Assembly: GCA_043799405.1 (NCBI GenBank)
Contig: JAZDNT010000004.1
Location: 70,206 to 114,637, forward strand
Reading direction: 5' to 3'
Source of the DNA: Candidatus Kerfeldbacteria bacterium
GTDB taxonomy: Bacteria > Patescibacteriota > Patescibacteriia > SBBC01
Length of the DNA: 44,432 nucleotides
Part shown: in pieces, positions 14,278-29,220 of the stretch
Layout: each line of letters starts with the position of its first letter
How positions within the stretch are numbered: position 1 is the first letter of the stretch
Notes under the pieces: generated by a model
What the model was told of the DNA's origin: nothing
The model's input: the letters and a program-made list of their open reading frames with translations, nothing else
Database searches by the model: none
Made by a program: the position numbers and the translations under genes

Positions 14278-16800
14278 CTAGAGCTCGGCGAGCCGTTCCT
14301 CTGCCAGCACAAGGTCGGTCTTTGCCTGTGAACGGATCAGTTCCGGGGCTTTGCTGTTTTGAGAAAGTGTTTTCTTCGTCGCAATATACTGTTCGAGCTG
14401 TTTTCGTTCGCGCTGGCGCCAGACGTTAAAAGTTTGCGCGATCTCTGCCGGGACCGTAAGCGCAGTAGTTGCCATACGAAGAGGCTCGCCCTGAACTGCT
14501 CCGAAAGAAACACCCGTGAGCCTTGTGACTAGCTCACTATTTTTTACGATGCCGGTGACAGTAAACGGTTTATTGCTGTTCCCATGCAGCTTCATATTAC
14601 GCAGGCCAACGATGAGCTGCTGGAATTTTTTGAAATCTTTAACCGAAGCCCTATCACTTGATTTCGCCTTTTTTACCTTTGGCCACGGTTCGATCATGAG
14701 CAGTTTCTTCTCTCCCGCAGCAGACCAGAGCGTCTCTGTGATGAACGGCGCGAACGGATGGAGTAGGATAAGGAACCGCCGAAGTACAGAGCGTAAGAGC
14801 ACGGTGTTCTTCTCGACCTTGTGGATCTCAACGTACCAGTCTGCGAAGTCCTTCCAGAGGAACTGCTGGAGCGCCTCGATAGCGAGCGAGAACTGACAGT
14901 GCTCGAGATGATTAGAAACAACAGAGGCGACGTCGTTAAGCTTTGCCGTAATCCAACGGTCGGCGAGGGTACTACCCCCCCTCGGCTTCGCCGTGTTCCC
15001 TCCTATCGTAGGAGGGGAACTCTGGGAAAGAACGTAGCGGCCGACGTTCCAGAGCTTGTTGCAGAAGTTACGCGCTCCAGCGATTTTTGCTTCGGACATC
15101 CTGAAATCAAGGCCGGGCGTCGTACCGACGATGACCGAGATCCGCAGGGCGTCAGTGCCGTACTTCTCCATCATCGGGATAGGGTCTATGCCCGTTCCCT
15201 TCGATTTCGACATCTTCTTACCGCGCTCATCGAGAATGAGGCCGTGGAGGTACGCGGTCTTAAACGGAACTTCGCCGGTGAAGTAGAGCGAGAACATCAT
15301 CATGCGGGCGACCCAGAAGAACAGGATGTCCCACGCGGTACCGAGCACCGCGGTCGGATGGAAACGCGTAAGGTCGCGCGTCTTTTTTGGCCAGCCGAGC
15401 GTGGAAAAGGTCCAGAGTCCTGATGAGAACCAGGTGTCGAGCGTATCATCGTCCTGCCGATACGCGTTGTCGCCGCACTTTGTACACCTCGTTTTAGGCT
15501 CTTTTATCGAAGCGACCGGCTCGCTGCAGGCAATACAGTACCAGATCGGTATCCGGTGGCCCCACCAGAGCTGGCGCGATATGTTCCAATCTCGGATGTC
15601 GGCAAGCCATCGCACGAGCACCTTCGTGAACCGCTCCGGCACAACGACGGTCTTACGGCTGCGCAGTGCAGCGAGCGCCTTTTTTGCCAACGGTTTCGTT
15701 TTAACGAACCACTGTCTCGAAATGAGCGGTTCGATCACGGTGTTGGAGCGCGAGCAGTATGCAACGCTGTGCGATATGCTTTCCTCTTTTTCAATGAGAC
15801 CTTGTTCCCTAAGGAGCTGCACAACGAGTCCGCGCGTCTCGAGAACATCTAGTCCCTGAAAGTCTCTCCCCGCAGCTGCGGTCATTTTTCCGAACGTGTC
15901 GACGACCGAAATCCGTTCCAGTGAATGCCGGACGCCGATCTCGAAATCAGCAGCGTCGTGCGCCGGAGTTACCTTAACCACGCCAGTACCGAACGACGCG
16001 TCAACAGAAGCATCGGCGATAATCGGAACGACACGGTTTGTTATCGGGAGCTTAACGCGTTTACCGACGAGTTCTGTATACCGGCCATCCTTCGGGTTGA
16101 CCGCGACAGCAGAATCGCCGAGCATTGTTTCGGGTCGGGTTGTCGCGACCGTAATGAACCCTTCTTGCTCAAGGATAGGATAACGAATGTACCACAGCAT
16201 CCCGGTTTCCTCGCGGTAGTCGACTTCAAGATCGGAAATGCTCGTTTGGTCCTGTACGCACCAGTGGATCACCCGCTCGCCCCGATACACAAGGTCGTCG
16301 CGATACAGCTTCAGGAACGCGGATTGCACAGCTTCCGAGAGCGATGGGCCCATGGTGAAGTGTTCACGGCTCCAGTCGCACGAAGCGCCCATGCGCTTGA
16401 TCTGTTCGACAATGCGCGAGCCGTAACGTTTCTTCCAGGCCCACACGTGTTTAAGGAACTGTTTCCGGCCGATCTCGTGCCGGCTGATCCCATTTTCGCG
16501 TAACGCTCGTTCGACGAGGATCTGAGTTGCGATGCCGGCATGGTCGGTTCCGGGGAGCCAGAGCGCGGCAAAACCGGACATCCTCTTCCAGCGAGTGAGA
16601 ATATCCTGCGTTGTAAGGTAGAGCGTATGCCCGAGGTGCAGCTCGCCGGTCACGTTCGCCGGCGGCATGGCGATCGAGTACGGTTTCCGTTTTTTTGCGT
16701 TCGGAAGCTTGTCAGGATCGAAATACCCTGACGCAAGCCAGCGCTTGTATGTCGGCACTTCCACAGCCTTGGGATCGTACGTTTTTGAGAGCGTTTTCAT
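14278..16800 (-). CDS. valS: Valine--tRNA ligase
   Basis: PPANVTGELHLGH, GTDHAGIATQ, DWNISRQLWWGHRIP, DTWFSS, KMSKSKG. Confidence 0.98.
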   Translation of the reverse strand: MKTLSKTYDPKAVEVPTYKRWLASGYFDPDKLPNAKKRKPYSIAMPPANVTGELHLGHTLYLTTQDILTRWKRMSGFAALWLPGTDHAGIATQILVERALRENGISRHEIGRKQFLKHVWAWKKRYGSRIVEQIKRMGASCDWSREHFTMGPSLSEAVQSAFLKLYRDDLVYRGERVIHWCVQDQTSISDLEVDYREETGMLWYIRYPILEQEGFITVATTRPETMLGDSAVAVNPKDGRYTELVGKRVKLPITNRVVPIIADASVDASFGTGVVKVTPAHDAADFEIGVRHSLERISVVDTFGKMTAAAGRDFQGLDVLETRGLVVQLLREQGLIEKEESISHSVAYCSRSNTVIEPLISRQWFVKTKPLAKKALAALRSRKTVVVPERFTKVLVRWLADIRDWNISRQLWWGHRIPIWYCIACSEPVASIKEPKTRCTKCGDNAYRQDDDTLDTWFSSGLWTFSTLGWPKKTRDLTRFHPTAVLGTAWDILFFWVARMMMFSLYFTGEVPFKTAYLHGLILDERGKKMSKSKGTGIDPIPMMEKYGTDALRISVIVGTTPGLDFRMSEAKIAGARNFCNKLWNVGRYVLSQSSPPTIGGNTAKPRGGSTLADRWITAKLNDVASVVSNHLEHCQFSLAIEALQQFLWKDFADWYVEIHKVEKNTVLLRSVLRRFLILLHPFAPFITETLWSAAGEKKLLMIEPWPKVKKAKSSDRASVKDFKKFQQLIVGLRNMKLHGNSNKPFTVTGIVKNSELVTRLTGVSFGAVQGEPLRMATTALTVPAEIAQTFNVWRQRERKQLEQYIATKKTLSQNSKAPELIRSQAKTDLVLAEERLAEL

Positions 16801-16809
16801 AGGGAATAG

Positions 16810-17007
16810 AGGATCACTGATCGTTCAGGATCCTTCGACGCGGCGCATAGCGCCGTGCTCAGGATGGTACCACCTGTATTTCCAGCTCCAGTTTGTACTT
16901 CGTAAAACTGGGGCTGGACGCTCGTTGATTGTTTGGAGCTCTACGTCCTAGAGGGATTTCTGCCCCGCGCTATCCCGGTGACATGAATCCGGGGTCGTTG
17001 CGCGTCT
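16810..17007 (-). ncRNA. T-box riboswitch (Val, GUC specifier; ultrashort Stem I)
   Basis: Stem I with GA motif and GUC-A in the terminal loop (16982-16979), Stem II with AGAA/GUA S-turn, Stem III (16882-16917), antiterminator CAGG-UGGUACC-AUCCU...AGGAU-CCUG. Confidence 0.88.
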
Positions 17008-17013
17008 ATGGTG

Positions 17014-17042
17014 AGAATATTCTCCAATAGTTGAAAAGTCAA
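17014..17042 (-). promoter_or_regulatory. Promoter of the T-box/valS transcript
   Basis: TTGACT-17 nt-TATTCT; predicted start about 17007, at the base of Stem I. Confidence 0.8.
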
Positions 17043-17174: not shown

Positions 17175-18257
17175 ATGAAATCTCGCGTGTTGATTCTCCC
17201 GATTCCGTTACGTCTCACGGCTGCCGATCTTGAGCGCTACCGGAATGTGGCGACGATCCTGGCAACCGAGGGGACGGTGCACGTCACAGTTTCGATCATG
17301 CAGAACGCGGCGAGTGAAGTGATCGATGGGGTCCTGAAGGTGCTGCGCGATTCATACGGCGTCACGGCGAGGAATGTGCCAGAGTACATGACGACGAATG
17401 AGGCCGCTGGGGTCGCGAACGTCACGCTCGTGTGTGAGGCGGTCGACTATTCGAGGTTCCTCGACATCGATCCGGTGATTCACTTCACTGGATTTCCCGG
17501 GCACGCTCACGATCGTAACGGTGCAAAGGAGTCCCCACGGCTGCTAGAGATGATGGAGCGCGGGCCGTTTACGGCGATCTATACCGTCCCTGACGACGGG
17601 AATGTGCGCTGCAATCCGGCTGGCTATTGGACAGTCGCTATCGCTGGTCAGCTCAGCGCGTCCAGTTCTTGCGGCTACGGCCTGGGCGTCGTGCGCCTGG
17701 AACTGCCGTTCAAGCGGGGCCAGAGCAGCGCGCGAATTCACGTCCGGATCGTGCCGAAGCCCGAAGCGGTGGTTCTGCCATCAGCATCCCGCTTGAATCT
17801 ACCGGACTGCCCAAAGTGCGGTCCTGGATACAGGATGACCTGGACTCAAACGTTGGAGGGCAGCCACTGGAAGTGTCCGAACTGCTGTCACACGCTTAAG
17901 CCGAATGGATCAGCATCGACGTCCGAAGCGCCCGTGAGAGAGAACCTCTCACCCGCAGGCGTGCGACTCACGCTGATGGACCCCTCAGTTCCTACCAAGA
18001 TTGCGGACAAGGATGAAGTCGAGCTTCTTCTGGCAAAAGTCGCAGCGGGGCTGGAGGTTGAGGCGGTCTTCAGTGCTCCAATGCAAGTGGTCGACGAGGT
18101 ATGCGGTTCCCATAGCCGCACCTTGGCCGAAGGTTACATCAGGGAATGGCTGGAGGAACGCGGCGCGAAGAACGCCATCGTCAATGTCCAGTGCACCCAA
18201 CGGCGCGGGGACAACACCTTCTACGTCGAGTTCCAGCGGCGGACCGAGGGAGCGTAA
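17175..18257 (+). CDS. Hypothetical protein with a central zinc ribbon
   Basis: 360 aa, GGAGG SD, CPKC...CPNC; N-terminal GHAHD/NPAG weakly recalls a metallophosphoesterase. Confidence 0.7.
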   Translation: MKSRVLILPIPLRLTAADLERYRNVATILATEGTVHVTVSIMQNAASEVIDGVLKVLRDSYGVTARNVPEYMTTNEAAGVANVTLVCEAVDYSRFLDIDPVIHFTGFPGHAHDRNGAKESPRLLEMMERGPFTAIYTVPDDGNVRCNPAGYWTVAIAGQLSASSSCGYGLGVVRLELPFKRGQSSARIHVRIVPKPEAVVLPSASRLNLPDCPKCGPGYRMTWTQTLEGSHWKCPNCCHTLKPNGSASTSEAPVRENLSPAGVRLTLMDPSVPTKIADKDEVELLLAKVAAGLEVEAVFSAPMQVVDEVCGSHSRTLAEGYIREWLEERGAKNAIVNVQCTQRRGDNTFYVEFQRRTEGA

Positions 18258-29145: not shown

Positions 29146-29220
29146 TGGTAGCCTCAAGGGGAGTTGAACCCCTGTTCTCAGCTTGAAAAGCTGATGTCCT
29201 AACCGCTAGACGATGAGGCC
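29146..29220 (-). tRNA. tRNA-Glu(UUC), CCA encoded
   Basis: 75 nt; acceptor GGCCTCA/TGAGGCT, anticodon arm TCAGC-TT-TTC-AA-GCTGA, GGTTCAACTCC T-arm, ends ACCA. Confidence 0.96.

Follow-up and report, generated by a model that had tools for sequence, protein, structure and literature searches.

The leader of the valine--tRNA ligase gene valS in an ultra-small, CPR-like bacterium is, judged by its sequence and by that of its relatives, a genuine valine-specific T-box riboswitch controlling valS. We see an even chance that its read-out, in response to tRNA-Val, works mainly by occlusion of SD-independent translation initiation. The anatomy of the leader, its conservation and covariation, its match to the host's tRNA-Val and the mutual exclusion of two alternative folds were computed here. 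T-boxes are usually seen as Gram-positive elements that have either a long Stem I and a terminator or, in Actinobacteria, a short Stem I and a Shine-Dalgarno (SD) sequestrator on ileS. The element described below stands in an SD-poor genome with neither a terminator tail nor an SD, and it belongs to a short-Stem-I sensor that is widespread in ultra-small CPR-like bacteria and reads valine, not isoleucine.

Locus and host genome

The window (the whole stretch of 44,432 nucleotides that was analysed) carries on its minus strand, at 16801-17042, a promoter-like site and a complete T-box leader that ends at the valS start codon. The features of the locus are, from 5' to 3':

17014-17042, minus strand: promoter-like site, TTGACT (-35), 17-nt spacer, TATTCT (-10)
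16967-17003, minus strand: Stem I, ultrashort, 37 nt, outer helix GCGC/GCGC and inner helix CCCGG/CCGGG
within 16967-17003, minus strand: internal loop of Stem I, K-turn-like, AACGAC opposite AUA
16980-16982, minus strand: specifier GUC (Val), 3' end of the Stem I loop, next base the purine A
16935-16966, minus strand: Stem II with S-turn, 5' strand AGAA(A) opposite 3' strand (C)GUAGA
16919-16934, minus strand: A-rich linker AAACAAUCAACGAGCG, 16 nt, between Stem II and Stem III
16881-16918, minus strand: Stem III, UCCAGC...GCUGGA, with a long distal extension
16826-16876, minus strand: antiterminator or antisequestrator, A1 CAGG/CCUG, 7-nt bulge, A2 AUCC/GGAU
16866-16872, minus strand: T-box bulge UGGUACC, in which UGGU complements tRNA ACCA
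16838-16856, minus strand: GC-rich hairpin CGGCGC-UAU-GCGCCG, 19 nt, inserted in the loop of helix A2
16810-16834, minus strand: off-state hairpin AGGAUCCUGA-ACGA-UCAG(U)GAUCCU, -11.6 kcal/mol
16801-16809, minus strand: pyrimidine-rich tail CUAUUCCCU, 9 nt, between the off-hairpin and the AUG (16800-16798)
14278-16800, minus strand: valS, valine--tRNA ligase, 840 aa

The valS product scores 1001 bits against NF004349 and 935 bits against TIGR00422, both above the family cut-offs. In most relatives TTGAC is kept at the position matching the -35 element (alignment A5), and transcription is predicted to start about 7 nt 3' of the -10 element, directly before Stem I. From the promoter-like site to the ATG at 16800 the leader is about 205 nt long. 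A small terminator-like hairpin lies just upstream of the valS promoter (17072-17059, minus strand), and a 360-aa open reading frame at 17175-18257 on the plus strand, which runs divergently from the valS leader, matches no NCBIfam or Pfam family. The sole Rfam match of the window at gathering score is a tRNA-Glu(UUC) gene (29149-29220, minus strand).

The host assembly comprises 1.03 Mb at 88% completeness and 54% GC, and its relatives, which number in the hundreds, have genomes of 0.7-1.6 Mb. The host's 16S gene is 2310 nt long against a model of 1533 positions, equivalent to about 780 nt of insertion (C2:456488-458797, L001). A small genome and a 16S insertion are hallmarks of the CPR/Patescibacteria, and the host is CPR-like, as a preliminary description of this DNA had supposed. 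A regular-expression scan and our covariance model R1 both find a single T-box in the genome, the one before valS.

Anatomy of the leader and match to tRNA-Val

Stem I closes in a 10-nt terminal loop, AUUCAUGUCA, in which the GUC specifier reads at 16982-16980. The distal elbow-binding platform (double T-loop) is absent from Stem I, which ends in the specifier loop. The 3' side of its K-turn-like internal loop is NGA in most relatives, and the GA reads UA in this leader. Stem II has a base helix, GGG/CUC, that can be extended to five pairs here. Its S-turn, a motif described in a review of T-boxes (PMC7583486), was assessed by sequence alone, as AGAA opposite GUAGA; all seven sequences of the core alignment have GUAGA and AGA.

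Neither a Stem IIA/B hairpin nor an F-box is detectable in the leader, where the 16-nt linker leaves no room for a hairpin, and a conserved GAG(U/C)G adjoining Stem III is all that remains of the Stem IIA/B region. A non-hairpin tertiary contact may stand in its place. Low-GC members of the class have CCGGG-NNAG-CCCGUNA at the linker position, a motif that is absent from the host's order. Immediately 5' of the antiterminator, CAGG-UGGUACC-AUCC, the leader reads AAUA. The GC-rich hairpin in the A2 loop is present in this leader and in one congener (G002) and absent in another (G001), a distribution that marks it as a recent small insertion inside a functional RNA. The leader as a whole folds 4.5 sd better than shuffled sequence. 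Its minimum-energy fold also pairs CAUAG at the 5' end with CUAUG at the start codon; we rejected this pairing, which G002 does not share and which presupposes a transcript start that is uncertain.

The genome encodes tRNA-Val genes with the anticodons GAC, UAC and CAC, all three with discriminator A and an encoded CCA. The GAC anticodon is complementary to the GUC specifier, a valine codon that matches the regulated gene, and the tRNA end ACCA is complementary to UGGU, the last base of which, in a 7-nt bulge of the UGGN type, fits the discriminator A of tRNA-Val. The T-box elements that the preliminary description had listed, including a valine specifier in the 10-nt loop of an ultrashort Stem I and a UGGU bulge matching an ACCA tRNA end, are therefore all in place on the minus strand.

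Conservation and covariation

When the leader was compared by BLAST with the relatives, counterparts before valS came up in the genus, in the family and in a second family, and the leader is 81% identical to the non-coding leader of a congener (E 1.7e-47). Plain MAFFT alignment of full leaders misplaced the variable inserts, so model R1 was built from seven hand-trimmed core sequences, and its seed is thus an edited one. In the order, R1 matches leaders upstream of valS in 16 of 21 genomes, and in a sample of 401 genomes of the class it matches 83. The preliminary description had taken the element for a specificity-switched version of the actinobacterial ileS T-box; with this distribution it is instead a member of a class that is common in its lineage. 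R1 does match the ileS leader of Herbidospora, weakly, at 21.6 bits, the two having in common AGUAGAaCC, an A-rich linker, GAGUG, Stem III and GGUGGUACC.

Alignment A6, which holds 27 homologous leaders, is model-based and was fitted to the model's structure, so that pair counts lean toward that structure, but the margin is large: standard pairs fill 95% of cells, but only 31-54% once the 3' partners are offset by 1-3 columns; in 25 of 26 pairs both sides vary in a compensatory manner; and none of 500 shuffles reaches the observed values. Both Stem I helices covary in the 27 leaders, as do the Stem II base helix (helix 3) and six of six base pairs of Stem III (helix 4). In helices A1 and A2 (helices 5 and 6) pairing reaches 98-99%, again with compensatory changes, A2 appearing in relatives as ACCC/GGGU, GCCC/GGGU, UCCCGG/CCGGGA and ACCG/CGG. 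Among the 27 valS or HD-valS leaders, the specifier GUC is kept in 25 of the 25 with an aligned Stem I, usually followed by a purine, and the UGGUACC bulge is kept in all 27.

Two relatives, G328 (L045) and G385 (L056), have the GUC T-box before an HD-domain-like gene that is followed by valS, a gene order by which the leader would control a two-gene operon. Other T-boxes also occur among the relatives. Thr-type leaders with UGGA bulges stand before thrS, with ACC specifier loops in four of them; a UGGU leader with a long Stem I precedes a 438-aa class IIb synthetase (Asp/Asn/Lys type) in one relative; and four leaders at other loci exceed the Rfam threshold. The relatives with further T-boxes are G009 (L147), G012 (L149), G007 (L148), G125, G170, G205, G403, G109, G298, G340 and G261.

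The expression platform

The strand GGAUCCUG, which supplies the 3' strand of A2 and A1, is also the 5' arm of the off-hairpin, so that antiterminator and off-hairpin exclude each other. Computed energies are -29.9 kcal/mol for the off fold and -23.5 kcal/mol for the forced on fold, a modelled gap that tRNA binding could bridge. With its bulge, the hairpin GGGUCCUGA-N4-5-UCAG(U/C)GAYCC is kept in nine leaders of two families, and its third pair changes between A-U, G-U and G-C in step with helix A2. It spans -10 to -34 relative to the start codon, within the 30S footprint, and ends 9 nt before the AUG.

No intrinsic-terminator U-tract follows the off-hairpin. Only 3 of the first 8 nt of its tail, CUAUUCCC, are U, and at 1.17 its U-tract score is the lowest among 21 platforms, compared with 4.0-5.2 in low-GC relatives and with 1.36 in the clearly SD-sequestering leader of G010; these scores follow a published weighting scheme and serve for relative ranking only. 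An SD core is likewise missing from the hairpin's 3' arm, UCAGUGAUCCU, and from the tail.

The corresponding platforms of relatives place this arrangement in context. In the low-GC relatives G113, G050, G024, G186 and G046, clean terminators with U6-7 occupy the same position, and the AUG often follows only 3-8 nt after the U-run. In G010 and G008, of a sister family, and in G163, the 3' arm contains AAGGAG, GGGGGGU or GAGGA, 7-9 nt before the AUG, and by sequence these hairpins are SD sequestrators of the classical type. In the window's family and in most of family f2, the hairpin is followed by a U/C-rich tail of 5-20 nt and then the AUG, with no SD and with scores of 1.2-2.2; across the order, the hairpin lies 5-20 nt from the AUG in 12 of 14 leaders, and the tails are about 50% U, compared with about 23% U upstream of ordinary genes. 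The thrS T-boxes of the same order keep UUCUUUNU tails (score about 3.2), so high GC alone does not explain the loss of the U-tract. In G005 and G006, of the same family as the host, the off-hairpin lies 70-90 nt upstream of the AUG and is followed by CUUUGNAUU; at that distance it cannot occlude the start. The valS leaders of these two genomes (L005, L006) have a different off-hairpin and a C/A-rich, G-poor spacer of 70-90 nt, for example CCAACCCUCCAAACCGCUAAACCUCUAAACCACCAAGCCUCUAAGCCUCCAAC, and G006 has a large hairpin inserted in Stem I.

Together these sequences indicate that a platform without terminator or SD is a derived state and not a separate design. The preliminary description had called the leader apparently neither terminator- nor SD-based, with an alternative hairpin that lacks both poly-U and SD. 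That holds for this leader, but the platform derives from terminators, and in the sister family the corresponding hairpin sequesters an SD.

Two other readings of the 3' region were rejected. The sequence GUGAUCC complements GGAUCAC at the 16S 3' end and could be taken for an extended SD, but it stands 10 nt from the AUG, with the virtual GGAGG about 16 nt away, and it is replaced by GCGACC or GUGACC in G004, G018 and G009, following A2. The off-hairpin is also not a start-codon hairpin of the mobile-element type, since its arms are the T-box strands themselves and it is conserved across two families.

Translation starts and termination in the host

We surveyed 440 ATG starts with a nearby upstream in-frame stop. 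In this set, where starts were inferred mechanically, an SD core (GGAG, GAGG or AGGA at -18 to -4) precedes 89 of 440 starts (20%), against 51 of 440 (12%) in a control window further upstream, and there is no G enrichment at -7 to -12. Position -1 is U in 47% and G in 7%, C is the commonest base at -2, and the leaders are A-rich; the valS context, CCCU-AUG, matches the genome's commonest bases at -1 (U) and -2 (C). The 16S 3' end is still GGAUCACCUCCUUUCU, with the anti-SD CCUCC retained. The genome is thus SD-poor overall, and a start without an SD is not special to valS. A protein of 436 aa with four S1 domains is encoded.

Canonical hairpin-plus-U terminators follow 2.6% of genes, and the few clear ones have U5-6. 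No Rho scores above the family cut-off in the 88%-complete assembly (best match 54.5 bits versus 509), and on this ground Rho-dependent termination at the valS leader was rejected.

Proposed mechanism and alternatives

From these features we infer that tRNA binds and at which step expression is regulated. On the established T-box model, uncharged tRNA-Val(GAC) would pair its anticodon with GUC in the terminal loop of Stem I, and the Stem II S-turn is expected to buttress the codon-anticodon duplex. The free ACCA end would then pair with UGGU and stabilise the antiterminator (A1 CAGG/CCUG and A2 AUCC/GGAU), which charged tRNA could not do. Without this stabilisation GGAUCCUG would instead form the hairpin AGGAUCCUGA/UCAG(U)GAUCCU. 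This off-hairpin would mainly block the loading of the 30S subunit, probably S1-assisted, onto the start region, and the tRNA-locked antiterminator would free about 25 nt of single strand (ACGAUCAGUGAUCCUCUAUUCCCU-AUG) as a landing site. The decayed terminator may also still end some transcripts, and a mixed effect is quite possible.

We propose that the hairpin blocks 30S loading because its U-tract has been lost, because it lies inside the 30S footprint and because the organism initiates mostly without an SD. Control at the level of translation exists in the lineage, since the corresponding 3' arm contains an SD in the sister family (G008, G010) and in G163. A translational read-out is further favoured by the most decayed U-tract of the 21, the encoded S1 protein, the lack of a Rho and the SD-poor genome, and by the conserved destabilising bulge and the inserted segments of A2 and Stem III. 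According to the review (PMC7583486), a short Stem I and inserts in these two elements are typical of T-boxes that act on translation, whose two folds have to be kept in balance so that the switch stays reversible. Several observations speak against occlusion: the valS tail is A-poor, whereas typical leaders of the genome are A-rich; a hairpin that ends at -10 leaves the start codon itself free; the corresponding hairpins of low-GC relatives are bona fide terminators; and the hairpin of G005 and G006 is too far from the AUG. The SD-independent gating suggested in the preliminary description thus becomes our preferred interpretation, with two amendments: weak termination is a less likely alternative, and the missing SD is genome-wide, not specific to this gene.

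The main rival is that the same T-box acts purely by transcription attenuation, the hairpin and its U/C-rich tail forming a weak intrinsic terminator, possibly with help from NusA/NusG or with a polymerase that tolerates poor U-tracts, and tRNA-Val causing read-through. Common descent favours this reading, as the matching hairpins of low-GC class members carry U6-7 and score 4.0-5.2, and the roughly twofold U enrichment of the order's tails over ordinary leaders would fit a weak U-tract that is still selected. Imperfect U tails also occur in other T-boxes of the order, and in G005 and G006, with the hairpin and CUUUGNAUU 70-90 nt from the AUG, only termination or decay could act. Yet the valS tail has 3 U in 8 and the lowest score of the 21 platforms, the stem contains a conserved bulge, and the few clear terminators of this genome have runs of U5-6. 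No bacterial RNA polymerase examined to date, that of mycobacteria included, is known to do without a U-tract, which also counts against attenuation, and on balance we regard attenuation alone as rather unlikely. Still less probable, in our view, is that the off-hairpin or the freed single strand serves as an RNase target that sets the half-life of valS mRNA. Such RNA decay or processing would account for a bulged U/C that is conserved in nine leaders with no obvious thermodynamic need, and for the far-upstream hairpins of G005 and G006, which need a mechanism other than occlusion of the start; the bulge, however, has another explanation, as a vestige of the 7-nt T-box bulge in a strand imitating the 5' strand of the antiterminator.

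The lost U-tract, the UA in place of GA on the 3' side of the K-turn-like loop and the insertion in helix A2 could also be signs of a decaying relic, in which the sensing domain persists through descent while the platform has ceased to regulate and valS is expressed constitutively. We consider this very improbable. GUC, the S-turn and UGGUACC are all intact, and the leader is 81% identical between species of the genus. Moreover, A2 has gone from ACCC/GGGU to AUCC/GGAU without loss of pairing by GAUCC in the hairpin's 3' arm, where A-U replaces G-U, and this match between the A2 change and the 3' arm implies that both alternative folds are maintained.

Returning to occlusion of SD-independent initiation, we know of no previous demonstration that a T-box blocks ribosome access with neither an SD nor a terminator. 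The leader may represent a third kind of T-box platform, in which a terminator-derived hairpin without a U-tract gates SD-independent, S1-type initiation by hiding or exposing a landing zone, in a sensor that has neither elbow platform nor Stem IIA/B; we hold this broader proposal tentatively, at slightly less than an even chance. If true, the relatives document, within one CPR class, a path from terminator to SD-less occluder to SD sequestrator. The valS leader is also a concrete system in which to study how riboswitches act on translation where the SD is not used.

Relation to known T-box classes

Standard annotation with Rfam RF00230 misses the valS leader. RF00230, which has a gathering threshold of 93 bits, gave no match in the window at gathering score, and a search of the 701-nt region at E<=10 was equally empty; nor did the model match anywhere in the 1.03-Mb assembly or, at E<=1, in other genomes of the host's family. 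This is a limit of the model and not evidence of absence. The T-box database TBDB applied its class II model to Actinobacteria and to class I matches whose Stem I is truncated, and to nothing else (PMC7778990). Full-text searches, from which subscription journals are largely absent, returned no paper on T-boxes in the Candidate Phyla Radiation, Patescibacteria or Parcubacteria and nothing relevant on T-boxes in metagenomes or on valS, in agreement with the preliminary description, which knew of no T-boxes in this lineage.

We file the leader as a variant of its own within the T-box kind because it departs from class I in its platform, U-tract and Rfam score and from class II in two respects, the SD sequestrator and Stem IIA/B. 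Its short-Stem-I sensor, which in close relatives is combined with true terminators, conflicts with the view that transcriptional T-boxes need an elbow-binding platform, and a sensor with neither that platform nor a Stem IIA/B hairpin is a useful test object for tRNA recognition. In the ileS T-box of M. tuberculosis, the Stem IIA/B hairpin is important for binding the tRNA (PMC11297988); as none is detectable here, tRNA affinity may differ from that of the model systems.

The actinobacterial class II ileS T-boxes (M. smegmatis and M. tuberculosis, PDB 6UFG; N. farcinica, PDB 6UFM) resemble the valS leader in placing the specifier apically, in the loop of a very short Stem I, a class II feature (PMC7583486), and in having no elbow platform. 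They also share with it the Stem II S-turn, Stem III, the UGGN bulge and insertions in A2 and Stem III, and in both cases the genome has a single T-box, on an aminoacyl-tRNA synthetase gene. Unlike them, the present element reads Val (GUC) before valS and not Ile (AUC) before ileS, resides in a CPR-like host, sequesters a strand without an SD and has no detectable Stem IIA/B hairpin or F-box.

With the aminoacyl-tRNA synthetase leaders of Firmicutes that RF00230 describes, the valS leader shares the specifier, the T-box bulge and the mutually exclusive logic of antiterminator and hairpin, and its off-hairpin descends from an element that is a U-tract terminator in low-GC relatives. Unlike these canonical transcriptional T-boxes, it is missing the distal half of Stem I and the U-tract, and its AUG follows 9 nt after the hairpin. 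The leader also resembles the other valS T-boxes of the same class, which agree with it in the Stem I loop with GUC, the S-turn, the UGGU bulge and the position of the off-hairpin. Within this class, the low-GC members keep Stem IIA/B and a U6-7 terminator and G008, G010 and G163 sequester an SD, whereas the window's family does neither.
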